Below, in pieces: positions 2,560 to 32,524 of a stretch of 64,000 bases of DNA. Each line of letters begins with the position of its first letter. Position 1 is the first letter of the stretch. The position numbers and the translations under genes are program-made. This stretch comes from an uncultured Gammaproteobacteria bacterium (lineage in GTDB: Bacteria > Patescibacteriota > Microgenomatia > Daviesbacterales > UBA10151): the NCBI GenBank assembly GCA_964547465.1, contig CAZJNI010000002.1, forward strand, positions 6,043 through 70,042, in the 5' to 3' direction. Below the pieces are notes generated by a model. It was not told the origin of the DNA. It was given only the letters and a program-made list of their open reading frames with translations, and searched no databases.

Positions 2560-3210
2560 ATGAGAGGGATAAAGGTAGAAGGAGTTATTTTAAAGAGAAG
2601 GAATTTGGGGGAGGCGGATCGGATTTTAACTGTTTTTTCGCTGCAAAAAGGTAAGATTTCTGTTTTGGCAAAAGGGGTTAGAAGAATAACTTCCAGAAGA
2701 TCAGGGAATGTGGAACTGCTTAATAGGTCTTTAATGTATCTTCATCAGGCTAAAACTTTTTTAATTTTAACAGAGGCTACAACACTAGATACTTTTTCAA
2801 AAATAAAGTCTGACCTTACTCTTTCTACTTATGCCTATCATATTTTGGAACTGGTTGATAAATTAACTGCAGAAAATCAGGAAAATAGGATTTTATATGA
2901 ACATTTAGTACAAGTTTTAAAAAGACTCGAGAAAAATCCCCGCCAGATTCTGATTCGGGCATTTGAGGCAAAGATTTTATCAAACTTGGGCTTTATTAGC
3001 TTCTTAGAGTCACACCCTGGAGTGTCAAAGGGAATACACCCCTGGGGTGTCCAATTACTGAAAAGTTTGGAGTTATCCTTGTGGGACGGGATTGAGAAAA
3101 TGGAAATTTCTCAAAAGCAGGCTATGGAACTGGAGCGTGTTTTAAGATATCATTTAGAGAGAGTGATTGAAGGATCACTTAAATCAAGAAGATTCCTAAA
3201 AAAGATTTAG
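2560..3210 (+). CDS. recO: DNA repair protein RecO-like (cysteine-free)
   Basis: N-terminal MRGIKVEGVILKRRNLGEADRILTVFS...VLAKGVRR matches the RecO N-terminal OB-fold pattern. Length 216 aa. Confidence 0.65.
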   Translation: MRGIKVEGVILKRRNLGEADRILTVFSLQKGKISVLAKGVRRITSRRSGNVELLNRSLMYLHQAKTFLILTEATTLDTFSKIKSDLTLSTYAYHILELVDKLTAENQENRILYEHLVQVLKRLEKNPRQILIRAFEAKILSNLGFISFLESHPGVSKGIHPWGVQLLKSLELSLWDGIEKMEISQKQAMELERVLRYHLERVIEGSLKSRRFLKKI

Positions 3211-3229
3211 GATTTATGATTTAAGATTT

Positions 3230-4564
3230 ATGAATAATAATTTAATGGATGAGCAAAGCTCCTCATCTTTGATGAGTAAGATAGTTGCTTTGTGTAAGCG
3301 CCGGGGATTTATATATCCCGGGTCTGAAATATATGGAGGACTTAGTGGAACTTGGGACTATGGACCTGCCGGAGCTCTTTTAAAGAAAAATATAAAAGAC
3401 CTTTGGTGGAAAGACATGGTGCAACTGCGAGAAGACATTGTAGGAGTTGATGCCGCAATCATGATGAATCCCAAAGCCTGGGAAGCATCAGGTCATGTGG
3501 AAGCTTTCAGCGACCCACTAGTTGAGTGTAAAATATGCCATGAGCGGTTTAGAGCTGATAAGGAAGATATAATTAAGAATCATGAAGCAACTCACAAAGA
3601 AAAGGTTGAATGGACAGAACCTCAACAGTTTAATCTGCTCGTTAAGGCTTATTTAGGCGTTTTGGAAGGTAAACAATCAGAAATATATTTAAGAGGAGAA
3701 ATTACCAATGGAGTTCATGTTAATTTTAAAAATGTTTTGGATTCTACCAGAGTTAAAATTCCTTTTGGAATTGCTCAAATTGGTAAGGCTTTTAGAAATG
3801 AAATAACCCCCGGCAATTTTACCTTTAGATCGAGGGAGTTTGAACAAATGGAAGTTCAATTTTACGTTAAAAATGAGAAATCAGAGGCTGAAAAGTGGTT
3901 TGAGTACTGGAAGCAAAACAGGATGGATTGGTATTTATCGCTGGGAATGAAGAAAGAAAACTTAAGGTTTAGAGAACACGCAGAAAAAGAAAGAGCACAT
4001 TATGCCAAAGCGGCATGTGACATTGAATATAATGCTCCGTTCGGCTGGTCAGAATTTATGGGGATTCATAATAGAGGTGATTGGGATTTATCCCGCCATC
4101 AAAAATACTCTGGGCAAGATATGACTTATAGAGATCCTGAATCTGGAGAGGAGTATACACCCTGGGATATTGAAACATCGGCTGGGGTAGATAGATCTGC
4201 GCTATTTATTTTGATTGATGCTTACAGTGAAGATAATGGAAGGGTTTATCTAAAACTTTCTCCAAAACTTGCTCCATACAAAGCTGCAGTATTTCCACTT
4301 CTTGCTAATAAACCGGAACTTATTAAAGTAGCCAAGAAAATTTATGATGATTTGAGAAAAGATTTTATGGTGGCTTGGGACGCCCGGGGTAATATTGGTA
4401 AAAGATATGCTAGTCAGGATGAAATCGGTACCCCTTTTTGTATAACAGTTGATTTTGATTCGCTAGGGGATGAAATGGTAACTGTCAGAGATAGGGATAG
4501 CGCCAAACAGGAAAGAGTTAAAATAGTTGACTTAAAAGATTATCTTAGTGATAGAATTAAATAA
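3230..4564 (+). CDS. glyQS: Glycine--tRNA ligase (alpha2 / GlyQS type)
   Basis: N-terminal RRGFIYPGSEIYGGLSGTWDYGPAG is characteristic of dimeric GlyRS. Class II aaRS core. 444 aa. Confidence 0.85.
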   Translation: MNNNLMDEQSSSSLMSKIVALCKRRGFIYPGSEIYGGLSGTWDYGPAGALLKKNIKDLWWKDMVQLREDIVGVDAAIMMNPKAWEASGHVEAFSDPLVECKICHERFRADKEDIIKNHEATHKEKVEWTEPQQFNLLVKAYLGVLEGKQSEIYLRGEITNGVHVNFKNVLDSTRVKIPFGIAQIGKAFRNEITPGNFTFRSREFEQMEVQFYVKNEKSEAEKWFEYWKQNRMDWYLSLGMKKENLRFREHAEKERAHYAKAACDIEYNAPFGWSEFMGIHNRGDWDLSRHQKYSGQDMTYRDPESGEEYTPWDIETSAGVDRSALFILIDAYSEDNGRVYLKLSPKLAPYKAAVFPLLANKPELIKVAKKIYDDLRKDFMVAWDARGNIGKRYASQDEIGTPFCITVDFDSLGDEMVTVRDRDSAKQERVKIVDLKDYLSDRIK

Positions 4565-28742: not shown

Positions 28743-29336
28743 TTATTTGTTAGTTAAAAGTCCAACGCTCGGAGGTGGCCAGTATCTAAAAAAAGCTCTT
28801 CCCACAATCTCTTCTTTGGTTACCGCTCCCCATTCTCTTGAATCAGATGAGTGTTCTCTATTATCCCCAAAAACAAAATATTGATTAGGCCCGGCTTTAA
28901 CTGTTGAACCTTCCAGAAGAAATGACCCTCCATTTGTATGGATCCCTGCAGGTAAAAATGGTTGAGAGATTATCTCATCATTTACAGAAACCGTGTTATC
29001 TGCCACTTTTATTGTATCCCCGGGGACTGCCATTATTCTTTTGATAAAATCTTGAGATTCATCCCTGGGGTTTTTTAAAACAATGATGTCTCCCTTCTTC
29101 GGTGAACCAAATCTATAACTTATTTTTTCGGTAATAATATAATCCCCATTTTGCAGGGTCGGGATCATGGAGCTTCCGGAAACTTTATGAAATTGGGCAA
29201 TAAATAAATAAATAATGAAAAAAATTGCGACACAAACAACAACAGTCTCAATAATTTCTATAAAATAGCCGCCTAATTTATTAAAAAAGCCTTTTTCTTC
29301 CCCATACCCATAACTTGTATAACCTTCAGGATCCAT
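28743..29336 (-). CDS. lepB: Signal peptidase I (S26)
   Basis: SGSSMIPTL catalytic Ser box. N-terminal TM. Confidence 0.85.
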   Translation of the reverse strand: MDPEGYTSYGYGEEKGFFNKLGGYFIEIIETVVVCVAIFFIIYLFIAQFHKVSGSSMIPTLQNGDYIITEKISYRFGSPKKGDIIVLKNPRDESQDFIKRIMAVPGDTIKVADNTVSVNDEIISQPFLPAGIHTNGGSFLLEGSTVKAGPNQYFVFGDNREHSSDSREWGAVTKEEIVGRAFFRYWPPPSVGLLTNK

Positions 29337-29401
29337 TCTTAAGATTATCGCAAAATTTCAGGTTGTGATGCAAGTACTACGGTGCTAAAATGACTTCTAA
29401 T

Positions 29402-29487
29402 GGAGTCATAGCTCAGTTGGTTTACCCGTTCAAATTTTTGCAGAGCAAAAACTTGCGCGGGTAAAGAGCGCCGCATTCATCCGCGCG
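29402..29487 (+). pseudogene. Degenerate tRNA-Val-like 5' fragment (acceptor 5' arm plus D-arm) with a ~43-nt hairpin inserted in the D-loop; not a functional tRNA
   Basis: GGAGTCATAGCTCAGTTGGTT matches the start of tRNA-Val at 29778 (GGACAAGTAGCTCAGTTGGTT). An inserted imperfect hairpin at 29422-29464 is followed by a non-pairing anticodon-arm-like stretch. No 3' acceptor complement. Confidence 0.35.
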
Positions 29488-29523
29488 AATCTTAACAGAT
29501 TCGATCGGATTCACATATAAAAT

Positions 29524-29787
29524 ATGTATTATGTATACGTTCTTAGGAGCTTAAAGGATGGAAAGTTATATTCTGGGTATACATCCAATTTGAAGCAAAG
29601 ATTGGAATACCATAATAATGGTAAGGTAGAATCTACTAAATGGAGAAAACCTTTTGAGTTGATCTATTTTGAAGGGTATAATCATCATCAAGATGCAACT
29701 GCAAGAGAAAAGTTCTTTAAGACGCAATGGGGTAGGAATTATATAAGGAGGGTGTTAAAGAATTATTGGAAAGAAATGGACAAGTAG
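29524..29787 (+). CDS. Small GIY-YIG nuclease-domain protein (YhbQ/UPF0213-like); stop codon overlaps the first 10 nt of tRNA-Val
   Basis: YVYVLRS..DGKLYSGYTSNLKQRLEYHNNG is a GIY-YIG motif. 87 aa. Confidence 0.75.
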   Translation: MYYVYVLRSLKDGKLYSGYTSNLKQRLEYHNNGKVESTKWRKPFELIYFEGYNHHQDATAREKFFKTQWGRNYIRRVLKNYWKEMDK

Positions 29788-29851
29788 CTCAGTTGGTTAG
29801 AGCGTCGCATTCACATTGCGAAGGCCACAGGTCCGAGTCCTGTCTTGTCCA
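29778..29851 (+). tRNA. tRNA-Val (anticodon CAC)
   Basis: Manual fold: acceptor GGACAAG/CTTGTCC, D-arm GCTC..GAGC, anticodon stem TCGCA/TGCGA with loop TTCACAT, T-arm ACAGG-TCCGAGT-CCTGT. No encoded CCA. Confidence 0.8.
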
Positions 29852-29852
29852 C

Positions 29853-31502
29853 TTACAGGGATTTTGTTCGATTATTGTAGTATTCAGCAACTTTTTCATC
29901 AGTTGTGTACCATCTTCCTAAAAACCAAACAGCATCCAGTCTACCTCCATGTGCATGCGGGACAAGTGATTTATCAAAACTTGCAACCCTTTTGATTCCT
30001 GCTGGATAAATAATTTTATTCTCAATAGCTTTTCTAGCGATTGATAAAGCACCTGTAATACTATCTTCAGATTTGTCTAACCCCTTTTCTATATCAGTAC
30101 TTTTTTTGCCCTGCAGCTTTAAATTAACAATTTCTAATATGTAGGGAGACAAATTTACCTCTCTGATTTTCAGCCATTCATTAAATTGTCTTAGAAAAAT
30201 ATCAACTGCCAACTCAAAGTTATCTGGTTGAGGTAAATGACGTCTTTTTTTCCGAGGTAGCCTATGATCAGAAATGGCTTTAGCAGTCTTAAAAAACCAA
30301 TTCCGAAAATTCTCATGAGAATCATTTTCTGGCATATTCTCTAACTCAACTGCAGAAAAAAGTTCAATCTGTCTTTGTGATATTGAATTGATTACTTCAA
30401 TAGGTCTAATATTATTTTGTGACGCTGTGTAAGTAGTTAAAAATTCTTTCGCATCTTCTGGTTTAATAAACCACCAGCTACCTTTTTTAACTCCTGGTAA
30501 ATATCCGCTTGCTAGTGCCTCTGTTAATCTATTTTTCACAGCAGGAGTAGCTGGAAAATCACTTACTTGTTGATATTCTTTTCCGGGAGATTTTATTCTT
30601 CTTTTCGCTCTAATTCTTTTACTTCTAAATTCATTCAACCCTTCTTGGGTGATATAGATCCTTCCTTGAGTTCGGGTTAAAAGATGTTTATATCTAAATC
30701 CTAATAGGGTTCCATACTCATCTGACGTTGTTTGTTCAGCAAGAGGTAAAAATCCTTGTTCCAGCATTGATGTACTTAGTGTAACTCTTTTATAATGATA
30801 TCTTTGCACCCATTCATCCGTTGTATACCAGCGTCCTAGAAATTTTACTGCTTCTAAACCACCTCTGCTAGCTGCTGTTGCTAGGGAGCCATCTTGATAA
30901 TCAGCTAGTAGTCTAAATCCAGCTGGATAGAATAGATTTCCTTCAATTTTGTCTCTTGCCCTATACATTAAATTAAGTACTGCCCGTTGGGTAGATCCTA
31001 ACTCGTCTATAATTTCAGATATTCCTTTACCCGCTGTTCTTAGTTCTACAGCTTTTAATTGGGCGGGGGTTAGTAATTCGGTAAGTCTATCTTTAAACCT
31101 TGGCATCAAATCTATGAAAGTAGTCTCTGTTCTCTCTTTTGGTTGCCTAACAAAAGTATCCTCAAAAGATACACCACGTGTCCTGATAATTCTCCTTAAC
31201 TCCATATTTATATTTGCTCTAGCTATAGTAAATGTCCACTTGATAAATGTCTTTGTTGGATCCTTACCTTTCAGATCAAACTCAAAAGACGGAAGAGCAG
31301 CATACATTTCTGAAAGAGTATCTTGGGTAAGGTCTTCAGCTTCGTTTGGAAGACGACGTACTAAATATCTAAATAATTCTGGTCTTAAAAAACCATCTAA
31401 TTCAGCAAAAGCCCGCTCATCTCCAGCTTTTATTCTCTTAACCACCAATGGTATATCAATTGAAGGTTTTGGTGTCCCTCTGCCTTCTGCTTCTAAAGTC
31501 AT
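29853..31502 (-). CDS. ECF-type sigma-70 family factor (regions 2 and 4) fused to a ~350-aa extension. The extension carries a second region-4-like HTH, and each HTH is followed by a repeated YPAG[FI]..GG.L.AV.FLGRWYTTDE module
   Basis: Region 2: AGDERAFAEL..LFRYLVRRLPNEAEDLTQDT..WTFTIARAN. Region 4: LTPAQLKAVELRTAGKGISEIIDELGSTQRAVLNLMYRARDKI. Internal duplication seen directly in the translation. Confidence 0.6.
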   Translation of the reverse strand: MTLEAEGRGTPKPSIDIPLVVKRIKAGDERAFAELDGFLRPELFRYLVRRLPNEAEDLTQDTLSEMYAALPSFEFDLKGKDPTKTFIKWTFTIARANINMELRRIIRTRGVSFEDTFVRQPKERTETTFIDLMPRFKDRLTELLTPAQLKAVELRTAGKGISEIIDELGSTQRAVLNLMYRARDKIEGNLFYPAGFRLLADYQDGSLATAASRGGLEAVKFLGRWYTTDEWVQRYHYKRVTLSTSMLEQGFLPLAEQTTSDEYGTLLGFRYKHLLTRTQGRIYITQEGLNEFRSKRIRAKRRIKSPGKEYQQVSDFPATPAVKNRLTEALASGYLPGVKKGSWWFIKPEDAKEFLTTYTASQNNIRPIEVINSISQRQIELFSAVELENMPENDSHENFRNWFFKTAKAISDHRLPRKKRRHLPQPDNFELAVDIFLRQFNEWLKIREVNLSPYILEIVNLKLQGKKSTDIEKGLDKSEDSITGALSIARKAIENKIIYPAGIKRVASFDKSLVPHAHGGRLDAVWFLGRWYTTDEKVAEYYNNRTKSL

Positions 31503-31518
31503 GAGATCATTATATAAA

Positions 31519-31641
31519 ATGCCTATTTATAGTCAAATTAATTACATAAATCATTACGGTAAACCTCAAGATATAGAGTGGGCAATTGATGATCAGGGGA
31601 AAATTTGGATTCTTCAGTCAAGGCCAATAACTACGCTTTAA
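31519..31641 (+). pseudogene. Relic of a PEP-utilizing enzyme ATP-grasp (PPDK_N-type) gene: only the domain's C-terminal signature survives
   Basis: GKPQDIEWAIDDQGKIWILQSRPITTL matches the conserved DIEWA...G.LYILQ.RPIT end of the PPDK_N domain. Compare YEWMVDGGVKLIGIKPYTP in the 59525 ORF. The upstream part of the ORF is antisense to the sigma-like gene. Confidence 0.45.
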
Positions 31642-31696
31642 ATTTTTATATATCTACTTATCCCATATCAGGTATGAGGATAAAGATTGAGAGATA

Positions 31697-32524
31697 TTAT
31701 TTCAATTTCTTTATTGATGCACTTCCAACAAGCGATTGCATTTGTGTAATAGCAACCTCATTTAGTTGTATTAAACGCTTACTTTGGGATAGACCAAGCC
31801 GGATAAGTTCGGCATTTATACCTTCCAAATTTGCCAATACCACCAATTGAGTTACATCTGCCCAGTCGCGGATATTGCCGTTTTTATTATGATTTTCATC
31901 TCGCCACTCCTTAGCTGTTTTTCCAAACAGCGCCATGTTGAGTACGTCTGCTTCACTGGCATAGATTACATTGGTTGATTGCTTTGATAGTTGGGGAGGG
32001 ATCAAGTACGCTTTAACCGCATCAGTTTGAATCTTGTAGTTAATTTTTGCCAAAGTCCGTTTTATATCCCAACCCAAGGCTAAGCGTTGATTTTCTTCCT
32101 CTTTTAATCGTTGAAACTCTTTAATGAGAAACAGCTTGAATTCAGCGCTAATCCAACTAGCAAACTCAAAAGCAATATCTTTATGAGCGAAAGTGCCGCC
32201 GCCATATCTACCTGATTTAGAAGTCATACCTGTCGCAGCAGTAGAATCTATCCATTTTTGGGGAGAAAGGACAAATGAATTGCTTCCTGATTCATTTTTA
32301 AACCCGTCGAATTCGACCAGTTTAAAATTTGGGTTGTTTATCTTCTCCCATAAACCAAGAAATTCAATAGTACTATGGGTTCTCATCCAATTTTTTACAA
32401 CATCTGCAGGCGCATCTTTGTTTTTCAGCTTGGCAATATCAGTGAGAGAAATGAAGTCTCCCTGATCCTTTTTTAGTATATAGATCTGTATGCCCTTGGT
32501 AATTATCTTTTTCATTTTAGGCAT
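31697..32524 (-). CDS. KilA-N domain protein (phage/mobile-element-associated DNA-binding family)
   Basis: N-terminal YILKKDQGDFISLTDIAK...THSTIEFLGLWE. Central GGGTFAHKDIAFEFASWISAEFKLFLIKEFQRLKEEE is typical of KilA-N/DinD-like proteins. Confidence 0.6.
   Translation of the reverse strand: MPKMKKIITKGIQIYILKKDQGDFISLTDIAKLKNKDAPADVVKNWMRTHSTIEFLGLWEKINNPNFKLVEFDGFKNESGSNSFVLSPQKWIDSTAATGMTSKSGRYGGGTFAHKDIAFEFASWISAEFKLFLIKEFQRLKEEENQRLALGWDIKRTLAKINYKIQTDAVKAYLIPPQLSKQSTNVIYASEADVLNMALFGKTAKEWRDENHNKNGNIRDWADVTQLVVLANLEGINAELIRLGLSQSKRLIQLNEVAITQMQSLVGSASIKKLK

Follow-up and report, generated by a model that had tools for sequence, protein, structure and literature searches.

The window analysed here, 64,000 nucleotides (nt) of an assembly of the GTDB lineage Patescibacteriota, Microgenomatia, Daviesbacterales, UBA10151 (GCA_964547465.1, contig CAZJNI010000002.1), carries at its tRNA-Val(CAC) gene a short open reading frame (ORF) for a GIY-YIG nuclease, placed between a decayed tRNA duplicate that is split by a palindromic hairpin and the intact tRNA itself. 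The feature is real and not a product of chance. We consider it reasonably probable that a small selfish element, made up of a nuclease and its cognate palindromic hairpin and similar to the recently described Ssn systems, has colonised the tRNA-Val(CAC) gene and that the locus is its resident copy. The locus would represent a new tRNA-associated variant of Ssn-like hairpin/nuclease elements, whose mechanism of movement we infer below. All results are computational, and the related sequences are mostly metagenomic.

The decayed tRNA copy and its hairpin

The only tRNA called by ARAGORN and by the Rfam tRNA model is the intact tRNA-Val(CAC) at 29778-29852 on the forward strand (71.3 bits), as anticipated in an earlier reading of the window alone (the original prediction). 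The ORF (29524-29787, forward strand) overlaps this tRNA by 10 nt (29778-29787). Its stop codon TAG (29785-29787) coincides with tRNA positions 8-10 (U8, A9, G10) and thus lies just past the acceptor strand, not inside the acceptor stem, where it had originally been placed.

Upstream of the ORF, 29399-29422 repeats 29775-29798 (83% over 24 nt) and 29465-29479 repeats 29799-29813 (93%). If the intervening hairpin is deleted in silico, the copy agrees with tRNA positions 8-36 at 28 of 29 sites. The local score of copy against tRNA is 53, compared with a maximum of 21 for the other 150-nt pieces of the whole window on either strand, and no further tRNA-Val-like fragment was found elsewhere in the window. 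The 5' part of the copy (29402-29422, forward strand) comprises an acceptor strand, GGAGTCA, that differs from the real tRNA at four of seven positions, and a D-arm, TAGCTCAGTTGGTT, that is identical at all 14; the resemblance to the 5' acceptor and D-arm on which the original prediction was built is thereby upheld.

The remainder of the copy (29465-29520, forward strand) holds AGAGCG, an anticodon-arm-like stretch (CCGCA/TTCATCC/GCGCG, with TTCATCC as the loop) and a T-arm-like stretch (ACAGA/TTCGATC/GGATT). Because these segments line up one by one with the rest of the tRNA, the copy looks like a full-length, heavily decayed pseudo-tRNA that reaches to the ATG rather than the mere 5' half that had been proposed, the T-arm part of the match being suggestive only. 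The other half of that proposal, the missing 3' acceptor strand, stands: no TGACTCC partner for GGAGTCA exists within the pseudo-copy. A second hairpin (29479-29510, 12 of 14 pairs) occupies the place of the anticodon arm, and the 3' arm of the first hairpin (from 29448) can instead pair with 29476-29493 (29448-29493; 18 nt, 72%), in competition with both hairpins. An origin of the pseudo-copy from the tRNA-Asp of the window was rejected, as the acceptor of the latter reads GGGGCCG.

A structured RNA or an intron at 29402-29520 was likewise rejected. The Rfam search of 29200-30000 (E<=10) returned the real tRNA and chance-level matches only, with no convincing family on 29402-29520 and no intron or tmRNA model; the sole overlap there is a minus-strand match to LhrC (E 6.9, 17.9 bits against a gathering score of 110). 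The covariance-model match to the pseudo-copy that the original prediction had named as evidence to the contrary did not appear.

The D-loop of the pseudo-tRNA is interrupted, directly after its GGTT, by a 42-nt palindromic hairpin at 29423-29464 (TACCCGTTCAAATTTTTGC-AGA-GCAAAAACTTGCGCGGGTAA; no strand applies), confirming the imperfect hairpin described earlier. Its arms (29421-29441 and 29445-29465) extend over 21 nt, are 86% complementary and enclose a 3-nt loop. The sequence is unique within the window, and the region folds at -44 kcal/mol (z = -5.3 against shuffles). It lies 59 nt 5' of the ORF; no hairpin was found 3' of the ORF in the window, and several relatives have a second one after the tRNA. 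A comparison of 22 distinct copies shows no variation in the outer 13 bp (ACCCG, AAATTT) and covariation of the two distal pairs (UA/CG/GC); pairing extends to 95.5% of the stem cells, compared with 18-53% in slid controls. By this pattern the D-loop hairpin is a conserved signature repeat of an element family and not an incidental interruption.

The GIY-YIG protein

The 87-aa product of the ORF consists of a GIY-YIG domain alone (Pfam PF01541, E 5.7e-16, residues 1-70 of 87). Its AlphaFold model (pLDDT 92.8) has the element order beta-beta-alpha-beta-alpha-alpha-alpha, and a fold search of the PDB with this model returned GIY-YIG folds only, UPF0213 and the Slx1 nuclease. The best relatives of solved structure are the UPF0213 proteins 1zg2 and 1ywl (E about 1e-6), with Slx1 found by fold. 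Pfam, model and fold search therefore all agree with the earlier description of a short GIY-YIG protein lacking an obvious DNA-binding domain. A search of NCBIfam gave no informative model (TIGR01453 scores 15.7 bits, the cut-off being 56), and database annotation of the ORF is the generic "GIY-YIG nuclease family protein".

Residues Y5, Y16, R26 and E62 are invariant in 24 homologues and align with those of an Azospirillum homologue discussed below. Homologues with 60-94% identity come from Microgenomates (Daviesbacteria, Woesebacteria, Levybacteria and others), and several of them end in ...SSVG, the translated tRNA D-arm. With a nonsynonymous divergence (dN) of 0.06-0.11 and a ratio to synonymous divergence (dN/dS) of about 0.05-0.1, the ORF is by this measure under strong purifying selection.

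Recurrence of the module at tRNA genes

The same module occurs at >30 tRNA loci in related Microgenomates: in three species-representative genomes (L001-L003), at 27 of the 29 closest metagenome loci (L081-L109), and at L162 and L164, the last of which lies at a tRNA cluster different from the site in the window. It begins with a 5' tRNA fragment whose last letters are GGTT, followed by a hairpin built as [T/C]ACCCG-nn-CAAATTT...AAATTTG-nn-CGGGT[G/A]A, by AGAGCG with a further 2-20 nt, by the ORF and by an intact tRNA. It occupies genes for Val (cac, gac, tac), Asp (gtc) and Ile (gat) tRNAs, where U8-A9-G10 usually doubles as the stop codon. Additional hairpins occupy the D-loop or the anticodon loop of other dead tRNA copies that stand beside the intact tRNA. 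A tree of the ORFs, weak because the protein is short, intermixes the tRNA types. From this distribution the module is recurrent and site-specific for tRNAs with a common D-arm. The original prediction had noted that absence of the pseudo-copy from all relatives would weaken its inference of mobility; the pseudo-copy is present in nearly all carriers of the ORF, L161 being a carrier that lacks it.

Pseudo-tRNA acceptor strands differ from the resident tRNA at 42% of positions, close to the 46% between unrelated tRNAs of the same type, and positions 8-15, beside the hairpin, differ at only 7%. In relatives the pseudo-tRNA remnant 3' of the hairpin is shortened to 8-20 nt. The contrast between positions 8-15 and the acceptor strand indicates that the unit of D-arm, hairpin and AGAGCG is constrained and that the rest of the pseudo-tRNA is decaying.

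The module varies in several ways. At L100 (151-405) the ORF contains an in-frame stop (..YLH-stop-QDAT..), which marks this copy as a decaying element. Nested or expanded hairpins, CACCCGAA-CCCGAAT...AAGCGGG-CGCGGGTAA, lie about 50 nt 5' of the ORF in L099 and L105 and about 150 nt 5' in L101 and L103, together with tandem hairpins that follow one and the same GGTT, as repeated hits on that site would leave them. A more distant subfamily, 52-57% identical and adjacent to tRNA-Ser genes (L118, L120, L124, L125, L134, L137, L139, L140, L144, L147-L152, L154, L157, L160), has one to several GC-rich hairpins (e.g., CATGCACCACGTAGGGTGCATGG; AGCCCTGAAC..GTTCAGGGCG) at the tRNA 3' end, after which the terminal CGCCA is repeated. 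Further tRNA-linked variants are located at L070 (about 2740-3350), L080 (about 2740-3000), L026 (2874-3000) and L046 (2939-3000). In a tRNA-Cys variant, pseudo-copies carry the hairpin CCCGTCTCAGACGGG in place of the stretch from anticodon to T-loop, and units of tRNA part and ORF are arranged in tandem. Other variants have hairpins in the T-loop of tRNA-Ser after position 71, or a GC-rich hairpin after position 13 of tRNA-Gln.

Empty and occupied alleles of the tRNA-Val site

The window's site exists in both empty and occupied alleles, the empty ones having been located through LepB homologues. Four relatives (L165, L166, L167/L168, L169) have retained the synteny of lepB, promoter and tRNA-Val, with an intact tRNA-Val(CAC) 10-11 nt after the -10 box, and neither hairpin nor ORF is present at these sites. 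In the window the corresponding sigma-70-type promoter (29363-29391, forward strand; TTGTGA, 17 nt, TAAAAT, TG extension) precedes the pseudo-tRNA, which holds the position of the native tRNA relative to it. Since the same promoter stands 10-11 nt 5' of the intact tRNA-Val in the empty-site relatives (L165, L166, L167, L169), it is by this comparison the native tRNA-Val promoter, now reading into pseudo-tRNA, ORF and tRNA. No terminator was called between promoter or pseudo-tRNA and tRNA-Val, and no T-run was seen 3' of the hairpin.

The genomes with empty sites are the closest relatives of the window, as judged from identities of 86-88% in ParB and 75-78% in LepB (L165, L167, L169), which exceed the 76-78% and 66-67% of the occupied genomes L161 and L162. 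For L27 and L21 the values are 73-86% and 64-69% in the empty-site genomes and 74-78% and 62-66% in the occupied ones. The GIY-YIG ORF is absent from the former and 91% (L161) and 84% (L162) identical to that of the window in the latter. L162 carries the ORF at the same site with a pseudo-tRNA and a near-identical hairpin. L161 (2903-3291) carries the ORF most similar to that of the window, at the same lepB/tRNA-Val site and without pseudo-tRNA or hairpin; its ATG lies 20 nt after the promoter and its ORF extends further into the tRNA (...RSSVG).

Among the genomes that share the insertion, the GIY-YIG gene has a dS of 1.0-1.3 and a third-position identity of 0.66-0.70. In the neighbouring genes dS is saturated in most comparisons, the exception being L27 in the pair of window and L162 (dS 1.2), and third-position identity is 0.35-0.57. 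This points to an ORF younger than the divergence of its host genomes, and hence probably to horizontal spread to the same target under purifying selection. As an alternative, it is formally conceivable that the ORF was inherited vertically, was lost several times and evolved at an unusually low rate. The original prediction, that a GIY-YIG-carrying element landing at the tRNA gene had left a partial duplication or a remnant of its target site, gains support from the more than 30 loci, from the empty sites in the closest relatives, from an ORF far more conserved than its housekeeping neighbours and from a protein with a single short GIY-YIG domain.

The intact tRNA-Val of the window hardly differs from its counterpart at the empty site of L169. 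In the window the T-loop (29831-29837) reads TCCGAGT, with C at the near-universal U55, compared with the usual TTCGAAT in L169; with this unusual loop the tRNA still scores 71 bits.

Inverted repeats and insertions in the wider family

Inverted repeats matching at least 11 of 12 nt (ACCCYGTKARAT and its complement) bracket the ORF in 85 of 157 loci; in the shuffled control the count falls to 1 of 157. On the left the arm precedes the start codon by 13-47 nt, and on the right it overlies the stop codon. Units of 277-290 bp are delimited by these repeats, and their removal in silico restores host ORFs of the HATPase_c_4 (..ALREII/NAIVHKDY.., slash at the junction), YhcG/DUF1016 and 23S_rRNA_IVP families; in the YhcG and 23S_rRNA_IVP cases Pfam matches then cross the junction. 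The units (L129, 1698-1974; L119, 1209-1498; L121, 2486-2774) are bounded by TTTACCCCGTTAGATA...TATCTAACGGGGTAAA, with the stop codon within the right repeat, and show no obvious target duplication. Judged from the restored reading frames, the bracketed units are discrete insertions.

The window hairpin arms, TTTACCCGTTCAAAT, are homologous to the inverted repeats that bracket homologous ORFs elsewhere, and the hairpin is therefore best read as a putative ORF-less copy of the repeat pair of this element family.

Genes for the four-helix-bundle "23S rRNA intervening sequence protein" carry insertions at one and the same point (..SNIA/..), just 5' of the ORF start, at the independent loci L112, L115, L116, L121, L122, L126, L132, L146 and L158. 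This suggests an insertion hot spot in that gene family.

Relation to Ssn nucleases and other known systems

Ssn proteins, described in 2025 as the first site-specific endonucleases for single-stranded DNA (ssDNA), are single-domain GIY-YIG proteins of about 94 aa whose genes are flanked by hairpin repeats termed NTS/SRM (Chenal et al. 2025, Nat Commun 16:2388; PMC11893778). Binding takes place only when the hairpin is present as ssDNA, the cut falling a few nt to its 5' side, and double-stranded DNA (dsDNA) is left uncut; the catalytic residues of SsnA from N. meningitidis are Y6, Y17 and the metal-binding E64 (PMC11893778). The authors of that study compared the layout of the genes with that of insertion sequences and REP/RAYT and proposed mobility as a hypothesis only; tRNAs are not mentioned in their paper (PMC11893778).

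The window locus shares with these systems a single-domain GIY-YIG protein of about 90 aa with the catalytic residues and without a DNA-binding module, a 20-50-nt hairpin-forming inverted repeat beside the gene that is conserved in sequence and flanks, and membership of a very widespread family. The repeat cores are similar, with TTACCCG..CGCGGGTAA in the window and ATTCCCGCG..CGCGGGAAT in Neisseria. As a stand-in for SsnA we used an SRM-flanked GIY-YIG homologue of Azospirillum lipoferum, found by plasmid search, with which the window protein aligns over its full length (pairwise BLASTP, 33% over 81 aa, E 2e-13; hhalign probability 97.7%). Its gene (L170, 1379-1887; strain 4B, plasmid AZO_p3, 255396-255904) lies between sufB and sufC of the Fe-S cluster operon, with two inverted SRM pairs (CGTCATCCCCGCGAAGGCGGGGATCCAG) on each side and four SRM matches by regular expression, and looks like an insertion. 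Staggered nicks on either side of the palindrome, considered for layouts of hairpin, gene and hairpin, were set aside as speculation; the flanking units in Azospirillum share the SRMs only and not the spacers.

The window differs from Ssn in that its hairpin is longer (a 20-bp stem with a 2x2 internal loop), single, confined to the 5' side and located inside a tRNA D-loop, and in that the ORF is fused to an intact tRNA. A further difference lies in the empty and occupied sites and precise insertions observed here, as opposed to a mobility only hypothesised in the Ssn paper. Since the similarity of the window protein to UPF0213 proteins is about as strong as that to the Azospirillum Ssn-type protein, we call it Ssn-like and not a proven member of Ssn.

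REP/RAYT systems (REPtrons) and IS200/IS605 elements resemble the present case in their small palindromic hairpins, which the nuclease of an adjacent gene presumably recognises and which are an analogy only, in ORF-less hairpin copies, in insertion without obvious target duplication and in a plausible action on ssDNA. They differ in size, the units here being much smaller (about 280 bp), and in their enzyme: a hydrolytic GIY-YIG protein and no HUH/Y1 transposase is present here, and covalent strand-transfer chemistry is accordingly lacking. Free-standing GIY-YIG homing endonucleases such as SegB of phage T4, reported to act in a tRNA gene cluster (PMC2330249), have the catalytic domain, the association with tRNA genes and the selfish inheritance in common with the window element. 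Seg and Tev enzymes, however, possess C-terminal DNA-binding domains and cut dsDNA, whereas here a catalytic domain alone is combined with a cognate hairpin and a duplicated tRNA part. Integrative elements that target tRNA genes and rebuild the tRNA in which they insert likewise keep an intact copy, so that insertion is tolerated, and leave a partial tRNA copy at the other border; here no integrase is present, the duplicate lies upstream and consists of the 5' part or of a whole tRNA in decay, and the "island" measures 376 bp. UPF0213/YhbQ/YazA and Slx1 proteins are alike in size and fold, a relationship at family or superfamily level only, and no report of an association of these with hairpins or tRNAs was met in the searches run. 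No prior description of the arrangement was found in the literature on GIY-YIG proteins with tRNAs, palindromes, transposases or Patescibacteria; a paper on group I introns in Patescibacteria tRNAs (PMC13011429) is unrelated to it.

Proposed mechanism and alternative explanations

If the locus is a resident Ssn-like element, the native promoter would drive, in this order, the hairpin-bearing decayed tRNA duplicate, the nuclease ORF and the intact tRNA-Val, and the intact copy would keep the host viable while the hairpin-bearing one decays. Like the Ssn proteins, for which this has been demonstrated, the nuclease may bind the hairpin extruded in ssDNA during replication, heavy tRNA transcription or DNA uptake, and may nick beside it. 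Host recombination and repair, using conserved tRNA segments as homology, could then copy the module into tRNA genes with the same D-arm, and hairpin-only copies would be ORF-less derivatives. That every locus shows a pair of hairpin-bearing and intact tRNA would follow from the need of the host for an intact copy in order to survive. More speculatively, expression may be self-limiting, because RNase P cleavage at 29778 would remove the stop codon of the ORF.

A broader reading, which we put forward as possible but doubtful, is that Ssn-like GIY-YIG proteins are the mobility enzymes of unrecognised insertion elements of about 280 bp, bounded by hairpins or inverted repeats. These would move via ssDNA and prefer the loops of structured genes (D-, anticodon- and T-loops of tRNAs, and conserved motifs of a few protein families), and their tRNA-linked form would inactivate the resident tRNA and keep or supply an intact copy fused to its own gene. 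If this is true, a host could not lose the tRNA-linked element without losing an essential tRNA.

Several observations weigh against the proposed selfish element. Only one copy of the module exists in the 64-kb window. Its hairpin is single and 5' only, not in a layout of hairpin, gene and hairpin, and the ORF lies outside it, unlike in the bracketed elements. The published SRM motif (HGTCWYN(0-2)YYVSBRHN(0-5)WNVSBRGN(0-2)RNCYNB), which as a regular expression finds the Neisseria consensus and the four Azospirillum sites, is matched neither in the window nor, within +-400 nt of the ORF, at any of 160 related loci, and for this reason formal SRM membership is not claimed. The lack of hairpin and pseudo-tRNA in L161 means that the hairpin is not needed for persistence, and a dS of about 1.2 that the transfers are not recent. 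Hydrolytic GIY-YIG enzymes cannot perform strand transfer, so that any transposition scheme needs host functions, and the assumed ssDNA specificity and hairpin binding are extrapolated from proteins with about 33% identity. Finally, the intact tRNA of the window matches the native tRNA of L169 and the acceptor strand of the pseudo-copy does not, a pattern that a simple model of insertion into the D-loop would not predict.

It is possible that the intact tRNA travels with the ORF as cargo instead of being the native gene, for which the evidence is mixed. At L164, ORF and tRNA are flanked by direct repeats of about 60 nt (CAAC-D-arm-hairpin-GAGCG), the right one of which runs on into a dead tRNA, which speaks for such a unit. 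The match of the window tRNA to the native tRNA at the empty site of L169 and the joining of closely related ORFs to different tRNA acceptor stems argue for a resident tRNA, and acceptor pairing at L164 (5/7 versus 4/7) does not discriminate.

Alternatively, the ORF could be a domesticated host gene co-transcribed with tRNA-Val, in which the pseudo-D-arm and hairpin form a cis-acting RNA leader for processing, stability or translation (e.g., by way of cleavage by RNase P or RNase E, or of a non-stop mRNA left by 5' maturation of the tRNA) and not a DNA mobility signal. The one promoter and the lack of a terminator across pseudo-tRNA, ORF and tRNA accord with this, as do the stop codon inside the tRNA, so that RNase P cleavage would leave a non-stop mRNA, the stable fold of the region, the constraint on D-arm and hairpin amid the decay of the rest, and the strong purifying selection on the ORF. 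We nevertheless hold a leader to be unlikely, because the closest relatives have empty sites, because the ORF exceeds ribosomal proteins in conservation when more distant genomes are compared, and because the same repeat brackets ORFs as insertions inside protein-coding genes, where a leader role is impossible. Hairpins also occur 3' of tRNAs and in anticodon loops of dead copies, L161 does without the leader, and the outer stem is kept in sequence and not just in pairing. Classical homing, in which an endonuclease cuts the dsDNA of element-free tRNA-Val alleles and break repair copies the gene, with the hairpin as a passenger or as protection of the occupied allele, would explain site specificity at a conserved tRNA sequence and the existence of empty and occupied alleles, and SegB (PMC2330249) offers a precedent in a tRNA gene cluster. 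It is improbable given an 87-aa catalytic domain without a DNA-binding module of the I-TevI or Seg type, an occupied allele that retains the presumed target as an intact tRNA gene, the lack of an intron, and closest characterised relatives that do not cut dsDNA (PMC11893778).

Transfer RNA genes do duplicate in tandem, only one copy is present in the window, and the pseudo-copy looks like a full-length decayed tRNA; an ordinary tandem duplication, with a YhbQ-like gene and an unrelated REP-like or terminator-like palindrome between the copies by chance and no element involved, might therefore be considered. This is very improbable in the light of the exact module with its near-identical hairpin at the same D-loop position, which recurs across tRNA species and genomic contexts, of its patchy presence with empty sites, and of a hairpin followed by neither a T-run nor a called terminator. 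A last alternative, scarcely credible, is that an integrase-mediated genomic island at tRNA-Val left an att-site remnant, or that the tRNA is split or contains an intron. Although tRNA genes are common integration sites and this one is directly followed on its 3' side by a variable segment of 2.8 kb that holds KilA-N and sigma-like genes, no integrase is found nearby, the repeat is the upstream 5' part at a distance of only 376 bp, and the window holds no other tRNA-Val-like fragment; a split or intron-containing tRNA is opposed by the lack of any intron or tmRNA model match and by an acceptor strand of the pseudo-copy without a pairing partner.

Neighbouring genes

The gene order at the locus is FtsW, L21, L27, ParB, LepB (reverse strand), promoter and module. 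The 2.8-kb segment (29853-32524) separates tRNA-Val from the polysaccharide-synthesis genes that follow the tRNA in relatives. Among its genes is one for a Sigma70_r2 protein of 549 aa, in which ..FLGRWYTTDE.. occurs twice as an internal repeat and whose stop abuts the tRNA-Val 3' end; a KilA-N protein and, at about 31550-31641, a C-terminal PPDK_N fragment are encoded as well. Neither this segment nor the neighbouring ORFs include an integrase.

Implications

The before-and-after alleles, the precise insertions and the signature of horizontal transfer make the mobility of Ssn-like nucleases directly testable, and they would be the first comparative evidence found, in the literature searched, that Ssn-like elements move. 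The many distinct pairs of hairpin and nuclease are candidate reagents for the cutting of ssDNA. Annotation of Candidate Phyla Radiation genomes will miss the pseudo-tRNA and hairpin parts. For the elements themselves, the arrangement amounts to an unreported way to live in an essential RNA gene without an intron, in which the tRNA is duplicated, the hairpin resides in the dead copy, the tRNA promoter is borrowed and U8-A9-G10 serves as the stop codon.

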